From positions 26,412,001 through 26,476,000 of the forward strand of contig OZ004608.1 in assembly GCA_963924565.1 (NCBI GenBank): a stretch of DNA of 64,000 bases, in the 5' to 3' direction. Below the pieces are notes generated by a model. The model was not told the DNA's origin and ran no database searches. It saw nothing but the letters and a program-made list of their open reading frames with translations. This stretch comes from Ascidiella aspersa. Lineage: Eukaryota. This document shows positions 200-33,000 of the stretch, in pieces. Each line of letters starts with the position of its first letter. The stretch's first letter is position 1. Both the position numbers and the translations under genes were made by a program.

Positions 200-3100
200 C
201 AGCTGAGGAGGTTTTATTCGTTTCTTGAGAGGAACCAGGTAAGCTTGTTGAAGAATTTTTCTTTTCATAGTTCTTTAAAACCAAATAAAAACGACAGTGT
301 AAAAATTGCACAATTGGGTATAACATATTTCTAATAAAGTGATGATCAAATTTAAACAAAGAAAAGTGCACTTTATTTCCCATATTAGTAGGCTGGGAGC
401 AGGTTTAAACTACAAGTTTATATAAAACAAAAAATAAAGTAGTTTTTTTTAAATAAATAAAATACATCATTATCATATTTGTAATTAGATTTTCAGGAAT
501 TGAAAAATGGACAGGAATGTAAAAACGTCAACAAATCAGGATTTAAATGAAAAACCATACACACCATTTTAGCATCATATAACATAGAGTAACTCTAAAA
601 ACATATAGTTACAGTCCACAACTTTTAAGATTCCTGAATAACAGAACTGATTGACAGAATAAATACCTAGTTGCTGAATAAAGTTTACCTTAAAAACATT
701 ATTAATTTTTTCACTTAATTCTTTTGCACTGATTGTTCCACCAATTATTTCTAATGGAATCCCATCCTTTCCAATAACAAATGTAACCGGAACAATCATA
801 ACAGGGTCTGGAATGAGTCAATTGTTAAGTAATAAATTATTTCTATAGTTTTATTAAATTATTTTTGCAGTTTTGAAACTCATATACATTTTTACACATT
901 TTTATTTAATTTATATAAAGCATAAAAGGATACAAATTTCTGCAAATTGCTTCTGTGGATCACTGCAAAGTAAAATAAAAGGTATTTATAAAAGCAAGGT
1001 CTATAAATGTCGCAGAATCGTAATACTTATACTCTAAAAATCATAAATATGTAGCATATGCATATTTAGGAAAAAATCACTTTTGTAATCAATAAGTCAT
1101 TTAGCTTCAACATGTTTGGAGACAAAAAATTAACCTTCCATTTTCCAACTTGATACAAATGCAAGTTCGACTCAATATGCTTTTTACTTCCTCATTTTCC
1201 CAACACTGGTTCATCATTGTCTTAGAATCGTCATCATCACCTGTTTTTAATAACAAGAATATACATTTTTGAATAAAGAATATACATTTTTTGAATAACA
1301 AAATTAAAAATCTATAACCAATAATATAGAATCGAATCATCACTTTTTTGGTCAACTATGTTACTTACAAGCAAAATCTAATTGAAAAAGTTTACATTCT
1401 AGTTTATGATAAAGAATTTGCCATATATTGGAACAAAATAGAAAAAAAATTGTAAAAAAGGGAACCAATCTACTTGAAACTTTGGATATTGTGCGGGAGA
1501 AGTCTAGGCAGCTTAAAGTTGCACAGTTGCAATAAAGTCACTGCTTATGTTTTGCTAGCTGTAAAAAAGTTACATCTAAAGTTTGTACAGCTGTAAAAAA
1601 AAAATTGTTTAACTTTTTGCCACTGAATACATTTACTTCAATTTTTTGACAAAAGGTGGCTGTAGCTATGTCTATTACAAAAGATAGCAACTGAGTTGGG
1701 ATTTAGCTCAAGCCTAACTTTTGAGTCTGAATGAGGAGATTCTTATTTACTACACAATGTTGGAACCAGACTGAGTTTTATTTCACTTTTATCATCTCGT
1801 TTGTACAACACATGATTTTCAGGTAAAAACTATTAGTAAACATCAACACGGATTTAGGAAATATCACTCAACCTCACTTGCCACAACAGAATTATATGAA
1901 AACCTATTAAATAACCAAGAAAACCACAGATATAGTTGTGTAGTTTTCCTTGATTTAGCCAAGGCCTTTGATACCATAGACAACCAAATATTACTTAAAA
2001 AACTAAATCATTATGGTATTAGAGGCCCACCCTTGAAACTAATAGAAAATATTTTAAGGCAAAGAAAGCATAGTACAAAAGTAGGAAAAACTCTTTCTAA
2101 TCCGTCGATGCCTGTATGCGGTGTCCCACAAGGTTGTATATTAGCACCTCTCCTGTTTCAAATTTACATTAATGACTTACCAATAATATAAATTGTAGTT
2201 TATACGCAGATGATACTGTCATTTACTCTTCTAACAAAGACATAAAACAGCTTCAAAAAATAATTCAAATAGTTATAGAAAAAATTGACCACTGGTTTCG
2301 GGCTAATAAATTATCAGTTAATCATTCTAAAACACATTACTTGGTAACCAATTCAAATTGGGAAATAGAAAATCAATTCAGTATTAAAATAAGGGATAAT
2401 AAACTGAAACAGGTAAATTCAGCAAAATATTTAGGCCTCATTATAGATGATAAATTGTCATGGATACCTCATATTAAAATGATTGAACAAAAGATTTCTA
2501 GGGGAATTGGACTCTTATTAAAAATGAAATACTATTTAGACACTCATTCACTTCGCCTTTTATATTATAGCTTAATCAATACTCATCTTCGATATTGTAT
2601 TGTAACCTGGGGTAGAGCTTATCCAACTAAATTAAAACATCTTGAAGTACTACAGAATAGGGCAATCCAAATTTTAAGCGGCACCCCTCCTAAAACAAGA
2701 TTACTTCCATTATATCATAACCATTCAATTTTAAAATTGCACGACCTAACCAAATTGGAAATATTGCAAATAACTCATAACTTTAAAAACAACAAATTAC
2801 CAGAAACATTGGCAAATTTGATGGCCCCCCTAGAAAACTTACATTCCCATAATACAAGGCTGCGGGATAAACAAAACTATTTTCAAGTAGGCGCCTCTAC
2901 CAACTCAGGAAGAAAAACCATAGGATTTTTAGGGCCAAAATATTGGAAGAATTTAGATATAAATATTAAACTATTACCATACAAGTCATTTGTTAAGGCA
3001 ATTAAACTAATGTTGTTGAACTCTTACCTACGTAAAACACAAAATCAAAACAAACCCTAGGCAATTAAAAAGGTAAAATTGGCTAATCTGCGAAACAGGG

Positions 3101-5445: not shown

Positions 5446-5736
5446 CAGTGTTTCTTAACCTTTTTTACGTGGGGGCGCAACTAGAGACGTATGAAAACGT
5501 GGCGGCGCACTTTATTTGTCTTAAATTGCCTGCATTTTTTTATTATATGGGTTTTATAGTTGCATATCTTTAAAGGGGTTCCAGCCTTTGAGACTAAAAG
5601 CGTTATTTTGTCCATAAAAGTCTTATTCCGATTAATTTTGGACTTATTTCGACATGTTTTTTCTTTTTCTCGCGGCGCACCTGGCAGCCTTCCATGGCGC
5701 ACCAGTGCGCCGCGGCGCACCGGTTGAGAAACGGTG
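5446..5736. mobile_element. hAT/Charlie-type MITE
   Basis: Ends CAGTGTTTCTTAACC ... GGTTGAGAAACGGTG, with degenerate 8-bp flanks ctataatt / ctataaga. Confidence 0.7.
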
Positions 5737-6003
5737 CTATAAGAGGTAAATTTCTTCGTCTTGTCTGTATGGATAGTTGGATAATATTATTCTGTCAGTT
5801 TACGAGCCGAGTTCCAGCTTACCTAGCCGATAACGAATATTCCAAAGAAAGCAAGAAATTACAGGACTATCACAGATAAACAAAACTAACCCTAAAGTGT
5901 TAACGAGAACAATTTCCATTGTTTACGAACAAATTAGCTTAACAATCACTCAAGGTAACCAGTTGCAAAATCAGAAAATTATTTTATTATTACACCTGAC
6001 AAA

Positions 6004-9000
6004 ATGGCATTTTTAAGCTCAAAGTTTTTAACGAATGTAATATTAGTGGTTTCGGCCTTAAGTTACGCCAAGTGTAAGTTTCTGATTTACCACAAAATGA
6101 GCAGTGCTGGATTTTGTTTGGCTGTTTTTCCGGAAAAAAATACATTTGTTGCTCAACTCAAAGCCAGTTGTCAGGTAGACAACGAAGCTTGGAAATGGGA
6201 AAGAATGAAAGCCGGCTTGTTGAGAAACGTAAAATACCAACGGTGTTTGAGCGCCACAGAAACGGGAGAGACCATTTCAAGCCGCGTTGAACTGCTTTCC
6301 TGTGACGTTCATAACGAGCTGCAGAAGTGGAAATGCACCACGGACCTTGCGCTAACGCTTCGAGGACAGAACGGTGAAGTTGTTTTTCTCGAAAGCCGCG
6401 TAGAAGTGACAGATTGGAGGGCAGATGAAGGGGTGGCCGAGGTTAGACCTCGCACCACCGGTTCCAAGTGGCTTCTATACAGCAGAGACGCGACGAACGT
6501 CGCTAGTTCAATCTGCGACGTTGCCCTCGTGGATTTTAAGCGAGAGACCGAAATAATAACGGGCGCCGAGGGAAACGTTGTTGGACAGAAGTGCGTCTTT
6601 CCGTTCAGACGTAACGGAGAGGAATCGTGGGGCTGCTTCGAGGACTCGCAGAACAGAAATATCTGTCCGACTACTGGGAACTTTGACGAGCACCCTGACA
6701 AGTGGGGTATTTGCCCAAACAACAAACGCGGCGTGTTTTCGACTTGGATGCCACCTTCCGTGTGCACGAGACCTTGCGGCGGGGGTCGCGTCAGGCAGCA
6801 GCGATTCTGTTTGTTCGAGCCATGCGTTGGCCCAAGGGAGGGAGGACCGCAAAGCACCGCGTGCAACACTCGGCCCTGCACAGGAGATCAAATTCTAACA
6901 GTGGGTGGCGATTCACAACGCTTCCCGGCTGGTCTTATGCCGGTCAGCGGCGACACAGTGATAGGGCAATGTCGCTTTCCGTTTGTCGCGGACGGCGAAA
7001 AGCGGCAAACGTGTATAACAGACCACCGCCGAAGCAGGCCGTGGTGCTCACTGACCGACAACTTCGACTCGCACCAGAAGTGGGGCTACTGCGTCGATGC
7101 GCTGAGGGGCGTATGGGGCAGTTGGGTGGAAGCGGGCGGGTGCACGCGCTCCTGCGGTGGTGGAAACATTATGATGTCACGCAGGTGCAGGGTGCCACCT
7201 TGCGACGGAGCGGAGACGAGAGTCGGGGGACACTGCAACATGAAGTCGTGCTTCGAGTGTTTCACAGACCGGGGTATAGCTTACAGAGGGACTGTTAATA
7301 TTGCAAACGACGGGACGCCATGTCAGAGGTGGGTTATCCATTCGCCCCACCAACACCCCAAAGAAACACAAGGGTTATATCCAGAGCTGGAGCAAAACTA
7401 CTGCCGCAACCCCGGTGGTATTTATGGGCAACCTTACTGCTACAGAAACAGCATGCGAGGTCCAGCCCGTATGTACTGTGACATACCGCGGTGCGGCGTA
7501 GATTTAGAACCAAGTCCAATACCTTACGCCATCCCTATACAAGTCAGTGCAAACCCATCAGCCGACAAGCCCTGTACATTCAATTATCAATATCAGGGCC
7601 AATGGTTGAGCGCCTGTAAGCTGGTAGAGGATTCAAACCCGGGTATGGAGAAATGCGGTACAGCAACGGGAGAGCTTGCCTTCTGCCCCTCGTCATTCAG
7701 AGGTACCTGGTCGAAAACCTACGCAAGCTACGGAGAGTGCGACAGGAAATGTGGCGGAGGCACGACTGTTAAGTTTAGAAAGTGCCTGTTTCCGCCGTGC
7801 TGGGGCTCAGCCCTTGATGTGGACAGCGGAGAGCCATGTAACACACAGCCCTGCATTGCAGAGTACCCGGGGTCGGGGGATTGTTTCACGGGGCGCGGAG
7901 CTATGTACAATGGAATGGTGTCACAAACAGTCACGGGCAAAAAATGTCTGCCGTGGAATCACGCCACCTCGTTCTACAAAGACCTTTTAAACCCACAAGG
8001 TTTACCTCGATTGACCGGTAACCAATGCCGCAACCCAAGTCCGGACATATACGTGGGGCCGTGGTGCTACTTGCCCGGCGGCGCGTGGGAATACTGTGAC
8101 GTCGCTAAGTGCGCATCCAGCGAGGGCGAAATATGGGGCGTCCCCGTAACCCAAGCGGCGGGGGTGAAGTACAGTCGATGCAAACTGCCCCGTCCGGACG
8201 ACGTCCAAAAGACCGAGGCCGGTTGCACAAAGTTGAGTGGCTATTCGTTTAGCTACTGCGTCGCAGAAGACGGTAAAAGAAGAAAGCGCAACGCCGCACA
8301 AGATGCAGATCGCGCTATCAGAGAAGGAGAGTACCTCGCTTGTCCGCAAGTCACCAGAGGAACCTGGTCTGCCTGGTCGCGAAGCAGCGGTTGTTCTGTG
8401 GCCTGTGGCGGCGGCAAAACAATGCGCTCTAGGATTTGCCTTCATCCGCCCTGTCAGCATGTCGAGGACAAAATCGGTAAGGCGTGCAACACTCAGAAGT
8501 GCTCCACCTGTCTAATTGGGACCGGTGACACCTACAGGGGCGCCGCATCGAAAACTTACCTCGGCACGCCATGCATCGCGTGGAGCGACATGGAAGACCA
8601 TAAAACTACGTACAAACCATCGTTGAAATCGGAGTTGCAGGCCAACCTGTGCAGGAACCCGGGGGGTCACCAAAAGCTGCCCTGGTGCTTCACAGGCATG
8701 AACGGGGAGATGTCGTACTGCGAAGTTGCGCATTGCAAGGACAGCCACTTACACACCATTCCCTACACAATACCTGAGGACAACCACCCCCAATCGGCGC
8801 AACCTTGTCACTTTCCCTACAAATACATGGGTCAATACTACTTCGGGTGTTTTCTCCCCAGCAAAACAAGCGTCCGCTACTGCTCCTTGAACGGCTCCCT
8901 GTACAGCGAGCCCTCATCGTGGGCGAGATGCCCAATGTTGTACAAGGGCAAGTGGACCGCTTGGAACAAGACCTCCACGTGCAGTGTTGTGTGCGGCGGT

Positions 9001-12000
9001 GGCACAACCATGTGGATCAGGGAGTGTCTCTACGCTCCGTGCGCGGGGGACAGAATCAAGCACGAAGGAGCCTGCAACACCAGACCCTGTTCTTGGGAGA
9101 AAACGATGCGGGAAAATGTGGAGTGTTTTATCGACGAAGGACATGCGTACACGGGCGACGTTGCTGTCACTTTGACTGGCCTTGTTTGCGAGGACTGGTC
9201 CGCAACCACGCATCCTCACCACTACGAGTCCGAAGAAGGCGGTGGGGTGAGTCTGGCCGGGCGCAAGTGTCGCAACCCAAGCCCATACGGGTACAGACTC
9301 GCGCCTTGGTGTTTCGTGAAAAGCGACAGTCGCACCTGGGAATACTGCGATATCGTGCGATGCCCGACGCACAAAGGCGGAATCAACACTGTAGGCGGAC
9401 CGGGAAACAATCGTCCGTGCGCTTTTCCTTTTGTGTCGAACAGCAGCTATCACCGCAGCTGTATTCGCGGCACGGTCCCGGTTCACCAAGATCCGCTTCC
9501 GCCCTACAACGCCGATTTGTTTTTCTGCGCCACAGTTCCACACGCCGACCAAGTGCCGACTAGGAGAGGCGACTTAAACTGGGGAGTCTGCCCGAACGCA
9601 AACGCTGGTGTGATGGGGGCGATGCAAGTTTGGGAAGCTGCATCCGAGAGCGAGCTGTGCACGAAGCTCTGCGGTGGAGGTAAAGTCAAACTCGAGTCTG
9701 TGTGTCGCATGCCCCCCTGCGCCCATGCGTCGCACCACGAAACAGGGGAGGCGTGTAATACTCAGCCGTGTAAGGAATGTTTTGAAGGCGACGGGACGAC
9801 ATTTCGCGGAACGCATACACCGTTGTTTCCCGACAAGTCGGTTTGTCTTGAATGGAGTAGCGTGTTGGTAGATGGAAGCAGAGAGAAGGAAGACTACGAT
9901 CGCCTGGACGTTTTGGGCGATTTGAGACACAATTTTTGTCGCAACCCTTACCCAAAAGTGCACAAGCAACCCTTCTGCCATACGGCAATCGAGGGGCAGG
10001 CGCAAAAAGTACAGCTATGCAACGTACCGCGGTGCGACCCTAAGGGCAAGGTGTACGGCGTAACTGGCGACATCGAAAACCCGTCGATCGAGTGCGTTTT
10101 CCCGTTTATGTACAACTTTTTCATGACGCAAAGTTGCGTGCAGTCTCGCGTGGACGACTCGATGATTTGTGGATCGCAGACTGGAATGTGGGATATTCTG
10201 TACGAGAACCTCCAAGTGATTTGCGACCCCAACTCGGCGGGGACGTGGGGTCCGTGGGGAAGCACCGGGAAGTGTACTTCCGTGTGCGGAGGAGGCAAAG
10301 TCGTCCATAAACGGGAATGCAGGTTAGCATTTGTTTTTTTCTCGCCATTTTTCGATACAAATATGATTGTGTACTTTTACAGCGGTAGATGGTTTAGTTT
10401 AAAATAAGAAAATAAAAAATATAAATTTTTGGGCATGATATTTTAATATGTTTTAAAATGCATTTTTACAAATAAATGCCATCGTACTTCCGACTATAAA
10501 ACTTGCGTTTCCACCTTGTGAACATTGAAATAGTCATTTTAAGTGATGATGATATACAAGCAGGGCTGCGGAATTGGTTAAAAATAACCCGATCCCGAGT
10601 CCCGAGTCCGACTCCGGTCAAATGTGCGATTTTTGTCGAGTCCCGAGTCCGGCCCGGACTCTACAGCCTGTATTTCACCATTTTACGGAAGTAAAATAAC
10701 GTTGATATTCAGCAATCCACTTATAGGGGTGTCGTATAATTTATTCACTCACAAAACATGGTTGGAAAATATTGCACCATATGATATTCCACCTTTACAA
10801 TTTCCATTTGGCGGCCATATCAGTTTTGAAATTCGGTACTGCGCATGCGCATGTCGGACTAGGGGCGGTAGTTTAACGGTCTTACTCGAGTCCCGAGTCC
10901 GACTTCAGCAAAACAAACCGACTCCTCGAGTCCCGAATCCGACTCCGACTCTGCAGCCCTGTATACAAGTACGTAAACGTCCTCCTAAAGATAAAATGGA
11001 TTTTACTGAATTTTTCCAATTTAGCTGTGCCATTTAAAGGTGATTTGGGTTTTGACTTTCTTCTCTTCGTACTTTCCCACCTGGTGACTGTTTTTTTTAT
11101 TTGAACACGACAAAAATTGTACCGTTTCCGTAGATACAAGCCTTGCGAGGGCAAGTCGGTCGAGAACTTCGGAACCTGCAACACTTTCCCGTGCGATCCG
11201 ACCAAGACCTGCCTGGACGTGTCGAACAGAGGCGAGCACTACAACGGCAACGTGCCAAGCTATAGCGAAGGACGCGACTGCGTGCCATGGACCAACCACC
11301 TTAACTACCGACAGTTGGTCAGCGAAGCGTCAGACCTAGATCTCTCGGGATCGGAGTGCCGTAACCCGAACGGTGCAAAGGCGAGGCCTTATTGCCTGAC
11401 CAGCGCTGCACAGGAGTTCGCATTTTGCTCAATCCCGCATTGTCCCGGCTCTGCGCAGGGGCCCATACTCGTGCCTGGTGCCGATTACAAGCAGCGTCCG
11501 CGCTACAACCCGTGCGTATTCCCGTTCGAGTACATGGGCGTCGTGTTCCACGAGTGCACCGACGCGTCGCGCATCGGCAAGGAAGAAGCACGCTGGTGCG
11601 GCACCGCGACCCCACTTGGCCCGTTTGACAACGAGTGGGGACATTGTCCGGAAAGCGCGCGCGGCACCTGGTCGTCGTGGCTCGCCGCCAAGCAGTGTAC
11701 AGCCAGCTGCGTCAAGATGGCGACCAGAAGCTGTCTTTATCCACCGTGCGTTGGTCCGAACGCGCGCGTGAGCGTAGAGTCGTGCGCGTCTTGCCGCCTG
11801 CCAGCGTGGGGAGAGTTTGGGATTTGGAGCAGGTGTGATCCATGCGTGGGCTTCAAGATACGCATTCGCACCTGTCAATTTGGGCGTGAGAAACTGGCGA
11901 GCCGCTATTGTGCTGGTAGCGCGAGCGAGTCCTCGTCGTGCGACTCGAACGACCACAAGCGCTGCAGTCTGCTGCACGTGGCTGGGCGTTTGACGCAAGC

Positions 12001-12127
12001 TGAAGTGGACGCGCTTACGAGAAGCTACGTCGCGTATAAGGGCGGCGGAGTCGAGAGTGTTTTCCGTCCGCGTGCGACGTTCTCTGCAATTGGCGTTTCG
12101 ACCCTCTTTTTATTTGCCGTAATATGA
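6004..12127 (+). CDS. ~1770-aa secreted/GPI-like mosaic protein: signal peptide, ricin-B (CysR) domain, 8 FN2, 9 TSP1 and 6 kringle domains
   Basis: Exons 6004-10322 and 11134-12127 (AG|gttagc...tag|A) total 5313 nt in frame. Motifs read directly: CysR FLIY..C..LQKWKC; FN2 CxFPF..C..WC..WGxC; TSP1 WxxW..C..CGGG..R.C..CNTxPC; kringle YRG..C..W..CRNP..PWC..YC.IP.C. Hydrophobic C-terminal tail with no cytoplasmic domain. Confidence 0.9.
10561..10961. mobile_element. hAT-type MITE (GAGTCGG subterminal family) in the mosaic-gene intron
   Basis: TIR CAGGGCTGC...GCAGCCCTG, exact 8-bp TSD TATACAAG, related copies at 25074 and 30255. Confidence 0.88.
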
Positions 12128-12405
12128 CGGGGAACTTTTTTTCGCGTTTTACTGCAGGTGACGTGTTTGTTTGAAATTCGATAATGTCGTTCATTTTTAG
12201 CGTTGGTATTTTTTCACTTACAGTACGGGTAAATAGACGAACAGTCGAACACCTCTTATCATTGGTTTATAAGCGAGTTGTACCTGGTTTAAAGCACTGA
12301 TTTGTTTTTTAATAAAAGCTTTACGTGCAATGATTTGCTCAATATAATTATTCCTTCACATAGTTATTGTAGTTAGTGTATTACAATTTTAATATTTTAC
12401 TTACT

Positions 12406-25073: not shown

Positions 25074-25435
25074 CAGGGCTACGGAGTCGGTTTGTTTTGC
25101 TGGAGTCGGACTCGAGTAAGACCACGTAAAACTACCGGAGTCCGACATGCGTATGCGCAGTACCAAATTTTAAAACTGATATGGCCACCAACTGGAAATT
25201 GCAAAGGTGGAATATTGTCCAACCATGTATTGTGATTTGTGAGTAAATGAACTAAACGACACCCATATAAGTAAATTGCTGAATTCCACGTTATTTTAGT
25301 TACGTAAATTGACAGAATACAGGCTGTAGAGTCAGGGCCGGACTCGTGGCTCGACGAAATCGCACATTTGACCGGAGTCGGACACGGGGTTATTTTTGTG
25401 GCCGGAGTAGGTTGTTTTTAACCGACTCCCCATCT
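25074..25435. mobile_element. Second copy of the 10561 MITE family, reverse orientation
   Basis: CAGGGCTACGGAGTCGGTTTGTTTTGCTG...CATGCG.ATGCGCAGTACC...AAACTGATATGGCC matches the reverse complement of 10561-10961. Confidence 0.85.
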
Positions 25436-28154: not shown

Positions 28155-28628
28155 TCATGTGTTGGCATCAGGTAATGTTTTTGCAACTTGGGAGGAATTG
28201 TTTGGCTTCTCTGAAGTTGGCTGCTGCTGGCGTTGTAAAATGGCATCCATCATTGCTTGTTGCATCCTTATTCGCTTTCTAGTATAAAACTGCCAGTGAA
28301 GAAGCATCTGATCCTCTATAAATTTGGCACATGGAGTGTTCACAAGTTCTGACCGGAACTGCTTGTACTGCAGCAAGTCCAACATGTAAATGCATTGGGG
28401 GTACCTCAGGTACTTGACATACTTGGGCTCTTTCCAGTACAATAGATACTTTAGGTAGGCCACAAAGTTTGATTGCTTAAAGTAACCACGCTGTGCGAGA
28501 AAGTTCAAATAGTTTGGGTTTGCCAGGCACTGGACAAACTCCAGTTCAACTTGGAAACGGACCGAATCATTGGAGAGAGATGGTTTAAGAACCATTCCAC
28601 CAGGATTTAATCCATGGGGTAAATTCAT
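28155..28628 (-). CDS. MED31: Mediator subunit 31, intronless CDS
   Basis: RFQVELEFVQCLANPNYLNFLAQRGYFK..FVAYLKYLLYWKEPKYVKYLRYPQC is the MED31/SOH1 signature. Confidence 0.97.
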   Translation of the reverse strand: MNLPHGLNPGGMVLKPSLSNDSVRFQVELEFVQCLANPNYLNFLAQRGYFKQSNFVAYLKYLLYWKEPKYVKYLRYPQCIYMLDLLQYKQFRSELVNTPCAKFIEDQMLLHWQFYTRKRIRMQQAMMDAILQRQQQPTSEKPNNSSQVAKTLPDANT

Positions 28629-29703
28629 TTTTCCTTAAACAAAGTCTATCTATGTTAAATTTTGAAAAATATACAATAGAAACACTGTTATTTTTGTGTG
28701 TTCTTTTGATACATCAACATAAAATTGGGATGAAATAACAACTTTGTACATATTGCATATGTACAAAATATGGTAAAACTACAGTTTCTGGAGCACATGG
28801 ATACTTTGCTTGAAATTGTTTTATTCTACATATATATAAAATTAGGTTGCAAGTTTATTTAAAGTGTGGTCTGTATAGTGGTACTTTCTGGGAAAATAGA
28901 GTTTCTAACTGGGTAATTATACTATCCCATTACCAAATTATTCGGAAAATAATTTGGGTAATGTATGACGTAATGCTTACTACAGCTATTTATTTGGCTT
29001 GGGTCACGTATAATTATACTTATTCTCCTACGTTAATAGATTAATAAAAATACAACTCCTTCACCAATATGTTAAACGAGATATACGTATATTGAGAAGA
29101 CTTTTCTCAATCTCAAACATTACACCAAACAATAATACAAAATTACAAACTGAGCTTACTTTGGTAGCTCATGCGTATCAACTTAACAAAATAAATTTAA
29201 ACAAATAATAAAATTTAACAGCACCAACTTGGGTCGGGTAATAATAACAACGTTTACAAAAACTGGGATAAAATTAATTTATTTTTTACTACTTCTTAAA
29301 TATCAATTTGCTAATATAAGATTTAACGGTAGGTGTCAGTACATAGTTCAACTTGTTTTGTTGCTAGGTGCTGCAAGCCGCACACTTCAGATTCATTCTC
29401 TATTTTATTAAAAGGAACGTAGCCTTCTAGAAAATACATTAACCTACTAGGAAAATGTGTATTGGCTTTCGGAGATAAGGAAACGTGTATTGGCTTTTCG
29501 GAGACATTTGTAGCTTAATGTAAAAGCAGCTGTATTGCTAATGTGTTAACATACTATGTCTTTATTGACCGCATTGTATGGGTACTAATTTACGGAATGA
29601 TGAATGGTCGGAATAGTCGGAATTGTCGGAATGGAATGAATAGGGCCGAAACTAATTTGATAAATGGTCACAATACACGTGGTTTCAAAATAAAATTTTA
29701 TTT

Positions 29704-30033: not shown

Positions 30034-33000
30034 ATGAGTCGAAGTACTTTGTGGCAAAGGACCGCATCAGATGCCGTAAGCTGGCATCAAGACCAAGCTC
30101 TTCAATCAACTATTTATATTCTCAGAGAAGTTGGACCAACTTCTTTTCTTTTAAAAGAAGATGGAGAAACAAACAAGTTTAAGGTAGGCTACAACAACAT
30201 AGTTTCAATATTTTATGTTGCAGCCTATTGATTAGAGAAAACCCATCTGGAAAGCAGGGCCGAGTCGGTTTAAAATAACCCTAGTCCGACTCATGCCAAA
30301 ATAATTTTTCAGAGTTTGACTAAATGTGCAATTTCGTTGAGTCCCGAGTCTGGCTCTGACACTACAGCCAGCATTTCACCCATTTACGTAGCTAAAATAG
30401 AGTGGATATTAAGCAATCCACTCATAGAGGTGTCATACAACTGTTCCACCCACAATACATGGTTGGACAATATTCCACCATTTGCTATTAATCAGAATTT
30501 TCATTTGAATAACAAAATCCGCCTAAATCCGAATGGTGAAAACAAACTGGTTGCACATGAATGATAAAGATTAAACTAAGTACAGAACTTAGTAAACCGA
30601 AAATCAGTTTGTTTAGATGTTATAATATATATATTAAATATATAAAAATCTGAACAAACTGATTTTCGGTGAATTACTAAGTTCTGTACTTAGTTCAATC
30701 TTTACCATAATTTGCTGTTACACATTTTCAATTACAGTTTGCTGCCTTATCAGTTTAAAAATTTGGAAATGCGTATGTGCATGTCAGACTCGGGACTCGG
30801 GTAGTTTTATGTAGTTTTACTAGAGTCCCGTCCGATATTTATTTCTTGAAGTGCAGGTTTAGTCTGTTGAAAGAAAATGCAGGTGCACTTACCATAATTT
30901 CCATAGTGGGTTGAACAGAATAGACAACACAATAATCTTTATTTTTAAATCTAATGTAAACTTTAAAAACTTTTAAATTTTAAAAACAAGTTAAAAAATA
31001 AACTAAAATGAACAGGCACAGAAGGCATGCATCATTAAATGAACATTGCGGAGTATAATCACAAAGTTTGCGTTTTAAGGTTTCTTTGGGAGATCCTCAC
31101 TCTTGCAATTGTTCCACATTTCAAAAAGAAAAAGTGCCCTGTAAGCATATCTGCTGGATTCTTTTAAAGAAGTTCAAGCTGAACAGAAACAACGAATGTA
31201 ATACATAAAATGATGTAATGCCTATTTAAAATGAACAAAATCTTTTTAACTGGAATTTTTAATTTCAGCATCGTACCAACTAGGTTTGGTGGAGAGAGAA
31301 ATAAATGATCTTCTTAGAGGTCCAACCAAATCACAAATATTGTCAATCACCAAGCCCCAAGCAGAATCAGGGGGTAAGTTTATAAAGAGGCAAACAAATC
31401 ACATTTTTTATTCATAAAATAGTAAAAAAAAGGTAATTTTTTAAAGATCATTTTAGTGCTTTCTTATTTATTTGTTTTGACTCTTCAATATTTTGATTGC
31501 CTTTTAAATAGTTTTTATTTTTAGATGGTAATGATAAGGCATTGGAACAACGACCAATATCTGAGGATGATGTTTGTCCAATATGTCAAGATCAACTTCT
31601 GTGCAAGCGACTACCTGTCACATATTGTAGGCATGTAATATACACTAGATTTTGGTAAACTTAATTACAATAGTTTTGTCCTCCACTTCATATGGAAACC
31701 ATAATTTTAAAGCAGAAAAGTAGGAAGGATTTGTATATTATGCCAGATATCCACCTCCAATTGCTGGTAATCTAGCAGTATTGTTAGCAGGGGATTCAGG
31801 GGGCCACCAGGCCATGCCCTCAAAACTATATTTTTCGCCAAATCGTACTATGCGAAAACAAGAGTTTAGCGCAAAGATTTACAGTGTTTACTTCTTCTAG
31901 TCTGTTCCAATGAAATTTGTTGGTATGAATGTCACTGCATGTTATGGCATGTTGCACCACATGACGAATAAACTCTATAGTCCTTTCTTTTGAATTGGAG
32001 TATAAATGCCATTGTTTTTAACATTTTTGATTATTATTTTTATGCATCTAATGCCCATTTGCATTCAGTTTAAAGTTTTTCCTATTTAAATTTTGCTCAT
32101 GAGTTTACTGGAGAACAAGATGTGTTAATGAGATTAAATTTTATATGACGTCACATTATGACATAATTTCTAAAATCATCTTTGAAAAAATTTGGTTAAT
32201 GCAGTCATCAATAACTAAAGGTTGTTGGCAGTACAACGAAAAACATTGCACACACATAAACTCAATACTCTTTAATGTTGCTGTCAATAAACTTAAAATT
32301 TAATTAAATGCAAAGTATCTCAGGTCAGGTTATTTCACTTAAAAACAATTATAATTTGAATATTATAATATAATTTATACATATGTAAATTAAAATATAT
32401 ATATAAATATGCAAATATATATAAAAGTATTCCTTACTCCTGAAGCAACTCATTGTAATTTTTTTTGGAATATGTAGATATGGCTGTGGAAACAGTGTGC
32501 ACATAAAATGCATGAAAGTGTGGGCAGACCATCAGTTGCAATCGTCAGACAGCAAAGATATACAATGTCCATTCTGCCGCAACAATTTTGCCAGCCATGC
32601 CCACTTGTCGAAAGAACTGCGAAACACAATGAGTGAGCGAAGACAACTTTCCCAGCTTGATTCTCACCCGAACACATGTTGCGTGATATGCCGGATGTCA
32701 CCAATAAAGGTAATATTTAGTAGCTAAATAACTAAAATAGAGTTATCAGACCAAATTGGTAGTAAATGTTAAATATTTTGTTATGCTTGCTTATATCATT
32801 CAATATCATACGTGTGCTTGTCACAATTTTTGACCATAAATTTTTAAGTTTAACATTCAAATCGATGCTGGAGTAAAAATCCTTAATAAATTGTTAATGT
32901 ACTTAAAGACAGAAACAACATTGCAAACAAATTATTGTTTAGTTGGTATTTTATATATATATATTTTTTTTGCATTAAATTTTAATTTTCTTTTCTTTTA

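Follow-up and report, generated by a model that had tools for sequence, protein, structure and literature searches.

We describe a gene in a 64,000-nucleotide stretch of the Ascidiella aspersa genome (GenBank GCA_963924565.1, contig OZ004608.1, positions 26,412,001 to 26,476,000; the whole stretch is called the window) that belongs to a conserved, apparently undescribed ascidian family of mosaic surface proteins. Its product is a new arrangement of known modules: a signal peptide, a CysR (R-type, ricin-fold) domain, one FN2 and one TSP1 module, six consecutive FN2-TSP1-kringle cassettes, a further FN2, two TSP1 modules and a C-terminal tail of the glycosylphosphatidylinositol (GPI) type. Judging from these sequence features, we favor, at a probability of roughly 0.45, a GPI-anchored, non-catalytic ascidian adhesion receptor that would recognize glycoprotein coats or a collagen-like matrix.

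The gene is live and intact, with low-level sense transcription. Two plus-strand exons, lying in open reading frames (ORFs) at 5959-10407 (1482 amino acids, aa) and 11105-12127 (340 aa), join into a coding sequence of 5313 nucleotides (nt) for a protein of 1770 aa (195 kDa, 129 cysteines) with a single terminal stop; the ATG is at 6004, the GT donor at 10323 and the AG acceptor at 11133. The other two frames of exon 1 contain 51 and 38 stops, and the GC content of the gene island is 51-56% vs. ~35% in its surroundings. The intron is supported by homology, because the exon junction restores a TSP1 motif that is uninterrupted in 10/10 other aligned rows. A donor-like hexamer at 6074 was dismissed, as the frame continues directly into the conserved start of the CysR domain. 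The RNA evidence comes from ~6% of the reads of one raw-read run; it covers 19 of the 24 exon bins at a mean depth of 1.4 (~1 read per kilobase per million, RPKM), and the first mate always lies on the minus strand, never on the plus strand, which is the usual signature of a plus-strand transcript.

An artefact, a pseudogene or an incomplete model with further exons (encoding a protease or a transmembrane segment) would fit the low RNA depth and the lack of an intron-spanning read among the joints listed for this run, each backed by at least three reads, with 88 further joints outside the list. We regard this explanation as highly improbable, given that the frame is intact and that identity to a same-genome paralogue is 60% and 64% at the first and second codon positions but 33% at the third. 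Of 40 listed differences between the sequencing runs and the window (99 more exist), the coding region has 18; 10 of these are synonymous, 8 are nonsynonymous and none introduces a stop. The homologues end at the same point, and no trypsin or C-type lectin match occurs in the 52 kb downstream of the gene. The first-pass annotation, made from the letters alone, had raised two dangers, a lack of transcripts and additional downstream exons; sense-strand RNA is present, no exon that would add a trypsin or C-type lectin domain was found in those 52 kb, and the full-length homologues all end in the same kind of tail.

Cysteine spacing and motifs in the spliced protein yield 24 modules (1 CysR, 8 FN2, 9 TSP1 and 6 kringles), in the order that annotation had proposed, and the whole chain is assigned to these four module types. 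The Pfam matches are strong for the stalk (Kringle E 2e-74 and fn2 E 1.3e-24 in exon 1, both families matching exon 2 as well) and weak for the head, where CysR_MRC2_N (21.9 bits, cut-off 27) and Ricin_B (21.2 bits, cut-off 29) fall below threshold. Pfam TSP_1 recognizes one stretch, just at its cut-off; most TSP1 assignments are based on the six-cysteine/tryptophan (Trp) pattern and the family alignment. A single-sequence fold of cassettes 1-2 gave a predicted local distance difference test (pLDDT) score of 31 and no usable cassette geometry. The absence of a C-type lectin domain, a protease and a cytoplasmic tail, likewise asserted beforehand, is borne out: Pfam scans of the window protein and its homologues contain no Lectin_C, and the terminal hydrophobic stretch of the window protein reaches the C-terminus with 0 residues, and hence no charged ones, beyond it.

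By a hydropathy and pattern heuristic, such a stretch, with small residues 15-33 positions from the end, is found in 13/13 tails examined, most weakly in P0139 and P0200; the tail of the paralogue extends 14 residues beyond its stretch. GPI anchoring of the window protein, which the first-pass annotation had suspected, is thus predicted from a pattern common to the family.

The paralogue lies on the same contig ~3 Mb away as a single intronless ORF of 1785 aa, 46% identical to the window protein, and a tree places the two as sisters with 100/100 support. Full-length relatives occur in Ciona intestinalis, Clavelina lepadiformis and Styela clava, which represent three ascidian orders, and five ENA proteins are further relatives. 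Ten full-length sequences carry the 24 module slots in the same order at 34-46% identity to the window protein, and position-specific signatures across these slots are present in family members. The named relatives XP_026693149.1 (Ciona, gene LOC113474824), XP_076821814.1 (Clavelina) and XP_039263319 (Styela) share all 24 modules and the tail at 34-41% identity; our literature search found no studies on these three, and the database names of relatives are "apolipoprotein(a)-like" or "uncharacterized". Each named genome holds one or two copies, and their architecture is fixed. The existence of a Ciona orthologue makes expression, knockout and binding work straightforward.

Four members are partial: P0009 (with an internal gap), P0011 (from TSP1-2), P0098 (from the late CysR) and P0139. 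In P0009 (Ciona XP_078494065.1, a newer model), kringle 3 to TSP1-5 are missing relative to the older Ciona model; as a 92% copy of P0003 with this gap, it was excluded from residue and motif counts. In P0011 (L012:6001-10413), which is also a single frame of 4.4 kb, a hydrophobic stretch directly precedes TSP1-2 and the 6 kb upstream contain no head match, so the locus is either a natural headless form or one with a long intron. P0098 (MEL6739763.1) is a divergent member filed as a protein of a Planctomycetota metagenome-assembled genome on a 5.6-kb contig; it is most likely animal DNA in that bin. P0044 (Styela XP_077971949.1, isoform X2, 1508 aa) stops once kringle 6 is complete and lacks the anchor tail, possibly as a soluble form or through a model error.

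Among 200 stored proteins searched with family hidden Markov models, FN2, TSP1 and kringle are combined in 25, all of them family members or copies. Proteins P0212-P0237 were assessed from their listed Pfam families. When a head profile was run against 1.84 billion representatives, none but family members among the best 150 matches aligned to the full profile, and a search for longer proteins with this profile returned four of the known full-length members and nothing else. No named non-tunicate member turned up, in word-index searches that also missed known members, and the ESM Atlas gave no usable match. The taxonomic range seen is a minimum, and absence outside tunicates is weakly indicated. 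The first-pass annotation needs correcting in that the protein is not a one-off, being common to three named ascidian genera and accompanied by a paralogue.

The serial duplication of a three-domain cassette, also anticipated in the first-pass annotation, is evident and old. When 48 kringle-FN2-TSP1 units of 8 proteins are placed in one tree, units from the same position, for all six positions, group across species with support of 76-99, and none of 200 shuffles was as clustered by position (P0006, P0007 and P0009 were excluded from this tree and from that of the kringles). Because units group by position, the six-cassette array was already established when these lineages diverged, and it escaped homogenization afterwards. 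Units 1 and 3, and units 2 and 4, are mutual best matches in pair scores, which indicates that a block of two cassettes was duplicated at least once; the extension to units 5 and 6 is a weak suggestion of the kringle tree, in which 1, 3 and 5 separate from 2, 4 and 6 at 96/98 but the branches of kringles 5 and 6 are long. We set aside the idea that a double cassette was triplicated in strict odd/even alternation: the whole-unit tree gives it 78/90, and the pair scores back just the 1-3 and 2-4 pairings.

These classic exon-shuffled modules are joined in a mosaic encoded nearly without introns. In the two family genes, each of the 11 kringle matches covers the whole Pfam model in one frame, compared with 2 of 57 other kringle matches in the genome that cover at least 70 of its 79 positions. 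The simplest inference is that the introns of the family were lost, perhaps via an RNA intermediate. The intron of the window gene was probably gained later, as it lies inside a TSP1 module, off a module border, and is missing from the paralogue.

The head was first described as a mannose-receptor head grafted onto the stalk; the likeness holds, but the graft is unproven, with ascidian ricin domains scoring equally. An alignment-based model from 9 sequences (pLDDT 81) shows a beta-trefoil followed by FN2, for which Foldseek ranks the mannose receptor, DEC-205, uPARAP and PLA2R at the top. VIA-align gives Z 17.8 and a root-mean-square deviation of 2.1 over 131 residues to the mannose receptor CysR, with other trefoils at 15.5 or below. 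When the CysR alone is compared with PDB sequences, just mannose receptor entries fall below E 0.001 (best E 3e-5). In sequence comparisons, the ricin domains of Ciona ricin-sushi-CUB proteins score like those of fish MRC1 (32.9 vs. 26.6 bits; mean Z 6.7 vs. 6.8), MRC1 being sampled here by one fish cluster. A ricin tree, tested without P0009, joins the family, MRC1 and one Ciona ricin-sushi domain at just 77/86, and the head FN2 scores 85 to the MRC1 FN2 and 97-100 to three-FN2 proteins. The ricin-sushi-CUB proteins P0088 (Ciona LOC113474441) and P0132 are ~3800 aa long, with 24-26 sushi repeats, several ricin domains and CUB, and with trypsin in P0132; presumably they resemble HrTTSP-1 in architecture.

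The motifs of the head are co-linear with those of the mannose receptor family from the first strand through FN2, and this matching order, with the linker motifs, favors descent from a common CysR-FN2 over convergence. We consider shared descent of the pair about as likely as not, or perhaps slightly likelier. The modules were available locally, because the same genome has a gene mixing TSP1, ricin and kringle exons: at G000:C2:8400000-8424000 on the minus strand (L025-L027), this intron-rich gene has the exon order TSP1, ricin, TSP1, kringle, ricin, ricin, kringle, kringle. Of three CysR matches in the genome, just that of the window gene adjoins an FN2 match, and no separate CysR-FN2 gene was seen. 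Another CysR-type ricin exon above the Pfam cut-off lies at G000:C2:29806769-29806960 (L022), with no FN2 match listed near it.

A 2024 survey, which applied Pfam at E<1e-3 and had Ciona among its outgroups, assigns the origin of the pair fn2 + Ricin_B_lectin (MRC1) to vertebrates (PMC11788884, Table 1, VGG12). Neither Ciona protein yields a Pfam ricin domain, even at E 0.1, and that of Clavelina passes (31.4 bits, cut-off 29). The family is a counter-example to this pair being vertebrate-only, implying that the pair is older than vertebrates or arose twice, and it bears on the origin of the mannose receptor family. In the most far-reaching scenario, which we find unlikely, a true mannose receptor CysR-FN2 homologue would predate the tunicate-vertebrate split; ascidians would have added the stalk and GPI anchor, lost introns via an RNA intermediate and used the protein as a sperm-surface receptor for the egg coat, and vertebrates would have added C-type lectin domains and an endocytic tail.

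The functional residues bear on the ligand classes the first-pass annotation had proposed. A tryptophan before the third cysteine (Cys3) of FN2 forms part of the collagen pocket and is present in the gelatinase and fibronectin modules compared. In the family it is kept in FN2-2 (11/11 rows) and FN2-8 (12/12 rows), and is lacking in the head FN2 (0/11) and nearly so in the other five slots (2/60); among the FN2 slots, conservation is highest in FN2-2 and in the head, with 52-54% mean identity. If collagen is bound at all, FN2-2 or FN2-8 is thus a likelier site than the head FN2. WxxW motifs occur in most TSP1 slots, TSP1-2 has WxxW and an O-fucose consensus in 11/11 rows, and 12/12 rows carry a net basic charge. 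An RGD motif (aa 1188) and a furin-like RRKR motif (aa 759) were dismissed as unconserved in the family.

Docking of proteases, after the manner of uPAR or apolipoprotein(a), with kringle/FN2 proteases placed at the cell surface, is suggested by the six kringles and the GPI-type tail, and Ciona has an FN2-PAN-kringle-trypsin protease (PMC6337849). Lysine-binding kringles need the anionic pair Asp55/Asp57 (PMC8618066). Such a pair is visible in plasminogen kringles 2, 4 and 5, but a pattern search found it in 0/6 window kringles and 1/72 family kringles, which argues against docking of the plasminogen type through lysine. Docking through a non-lysine surface would keep this alternative alive, improbable as we consider it.

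As an adhesion receptor, the 195-kDa chain would enter the secretory path and fold as 24 disulphide-bonded modules, and its hydrophobic tail would be exchanged for a lipid anchor. The CysR and FN2-1/TSP1/FN2-2, farthest from the membrane, may then attach to a glycoprotein coat outside the cell or to a collagen-like matrix, with the six position-specific cassettes as a long stalk whose additional weak protein or glycan contacts could provide avidity. The protein may hold cells to matrix or act through a partner, as without a cytoplasmic tail it would neither signal nor internalize alone. The 24 slots kept in 10 sequences, the 13/13 tails, the retained FN2-2 and FN2-8 tryptophans and the mannose receptor-like trefoil all support adhesion.

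Two points weigh on the other side. The pocket tryptophan is missing from 6/8 FN2 slots in nearly all rows, and cross-genus identity of 34-46% under an unchanging architecture is as compatible with a conserved structural role as with gamete recognition. A rival reading is a structural component of the tunic, mucus net or basement membrane that is shed or secreted: anchored to begin with, it would later be freed and cross-linked into a long scaffold rich in disulphides. The 129 cysteines, the TSP1 and FN2 repeats, the basic charge and the tail-less RefSeq isoform P0044 are in keeping with this, but conservation extends to the anchor-type tail and not to the furin-like and RGD motifs, and the transcript level in the RNA run is low, so we consider a scaffold quite unlikely.

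The head invites another explanation, a lectin co-receptor of innate immunity or scavenging, located on haemocytes or on the epithelium of the pharynx, whose CysR would capture glycans for a transmembrane partner in the style of the mannose receptor. Its fold and CysR-FN2 order match that family, and among the three CysR matches of the genome no separate CysR-FN2 gene was seen. Against these stand the missing C-type lectin domain and cytoplasmic tail, and the small number of copies (one or two in each named genome, fixed in architecture), unlike expanded immune families. The sulphated-sugar site of the mannose receptor includes a tryptophan three residues before the conserved C-terminal tryptophan, and a tryptophan at this offset is missing in 11/11 rows with sequence there. 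The co-receptor is, in our view, a doubtful alternative.

Within the adhesion-receptor reading, the gamete surface (sperm to egg coat) may be the likeliest single setting, at about even odds, largely by analogy: ascidian sperm bind the egg coat via GPI-anchored Urabin and the ricin-domain protein HrTTSP-1 (PMC9265791). Three further hints are indirect: the closest ascidian ricin domains sit in ricin-sushi-CUB(-trypsin) proteins, presumably of the TTSP-1 architecture, the gene is nearly intronless, and its expression in the RNA run is low. In addition, a Botryllus fertile-vs-infertile gene list includes apolipoprotein(a) (P08519) as a human best match (PMC4523013, supplements 1, 4 and 11). These hints are countered in turn: the Botryllus entry is not tied to the ascidian CysR-kringle family and could be any kringle protein; the link to TTSP-1 is tentative, as HrTTSP-1 is described with EGF-like repeats, not sushi; and the ascidian sperm-protein passages of the review contain no protein of the 24-module architecture (PMC9265791).

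Table 1. Coordinates of the window gene, its modules and its paralogue (window positions unless a genome locus is given)
Feature	Position	Strand	Basis
Exon 1 coding part (aa 1-1439 and two bases of codon 1440)	6004..10322	+	ORF, splice model
Exon 2 coding part, up to the stop codon	11134..12127	+	ORF, splice model
Intron, 811 nt, phase 2, GT-AG, within TSP1-7; lacking in paralogue	10323..11133	+	homology
Element like a miniature inverted-repeat transposable element (MITE), high-copy, in intron; 17-nt inverted ends, 8-nt flanking duplication	10561..10961	.	sequence
Signal peptide, about aa 1-22	6004..6069	+	hydropathy pattern
CysR / R-type (ricin-fold) beta-trefoil, aa 24-172	6073..6519	+	weak Pfam; PDB sequence match; model
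FN2-1 (head), lacking Trp before Cys3	6556..6717	+	motifs, alignment
TSP1-1	6730..6882	+	Cys/Trp pattern
Cassette 1: FN2-2 (best-kept FN2 pocket), TSP1-2, kringle 1	6934..7497	+	Pfam, alignment
Cassette 2: FN2-3, TSP1-3, kringle 2	7516..8115	+	alignment
Cassette 3: FN2-4 (degenerate, long insert), TSP1-4, kringle 3	8137..8739	+	Pfam, alignment
Cassette 4: FN2-5, TSP1-5, kringle 4	8755..9366	+	alignment
Cassette 5: FN2-6, TSP1-6, kringle 5	9382..10038	+	alignment
Cassette 6: FN2-7, TSP1-7 (intron-split), kringle 6	10057..11446	+	Pfam, alignment
FN2-8 (Trp before Cys3 kept), TSP1-8, TSP1-9	11465..11968	+	Pfam, alignment
GPI-signal-like tail: small residues ~28 from end, spacer, terminal hydrophobic stretch	12041..12124	+	pattern
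Polyadenylation-signal-like hexamer	12311..12316	+	bin containing it reached by sense RNA reads
Intronless paralogue (third-position GC 0.36 vs. 0.63 for window gene)	G000:C2:23447881-23453238 (L011:2382-7739)		

Elsewhere in the window, reverse-transcriptase remains (RVT_1) occupy two overlapping plus-strand frames at 1775-3060, and a high-copy repeat lies just upstream of the gene at 5600-5840. Just past the 3' end, at 12410-13345, 356-nt inverted repeats that are 98% alike flank a frame on the minus strand that matches GIY-YIG weakly (E 0.0045); this may be what is left of a Penelope-like element. Besides the intronic copy, the MITE-like element occurs at 25083-25388 and 30322-30489 and in L025. 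The Mediator subunit Med31 is encoded at 28155-28634 on the minus strand.

No characterized family of this architecture was found in the literature, and our full-text searches returned no description of the 24-module arrangement; they had little reach into older ascidian sperm proteomics, where gene-identifier listings are possible. The parts seen of PMC6337849, PMC9643190 and PMC3927612 do not contain it either. The closest known systems share single modules or pairs with the window protein. Its six kringles have the standard six-cysteine pattern of apolipoprotein(a), plasminogen and HGF, but are separated by FN2 and TSP1, lack the Asp-x-Asp/Glu lysine site, and come with a membrane-anchor signal and without PAN or a trypsin-like protease domain. 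The protein is not an apolipoprotein(a), and the automatic name "apolipoprotein(a)-like", under which databases mislabel a conserved ascidian family, misleads. Factor XII, HGFA and the Ciona FN2-PAN-kringle-trypsin protein (PMC6337849) also combine FN2 and kringle in one chain, and differ in their EGF, FN1, PAN or trypsin domains, none of which occurs here. The ascidian ricin-sushi-CUB-(trypsin) proteins, such as Ciona LOC113474441, have ricin domains as near to the window CysR as that of fish MRC1, on a sushi/CUB/protease body with no FN2, TSP1 or kringle among the Pfam matches. With GPI-anchored proteins, the window protein and its homologues share the pattern of signal peptide, C-terminal small-residue site, spacer and hydrophobic end. 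The mannose receptor family (MRC1, MRC2/uPARAP/Endo180, PLA2R1 and LY75/DEC-205), whose members carry 8-10 C-type lectin domains, has the same N-terminal CysR beta-trefoil directly followed by FN2. The window protein falls outside that family despite its head: it lacks C-type lectin domains, a transmembrane segment and a cytoplasmic tail, its head FN2 lacks the pocket tryptophan, and its nearly intronless gene continues instead into the FN2-TSP1-kringle stalk.

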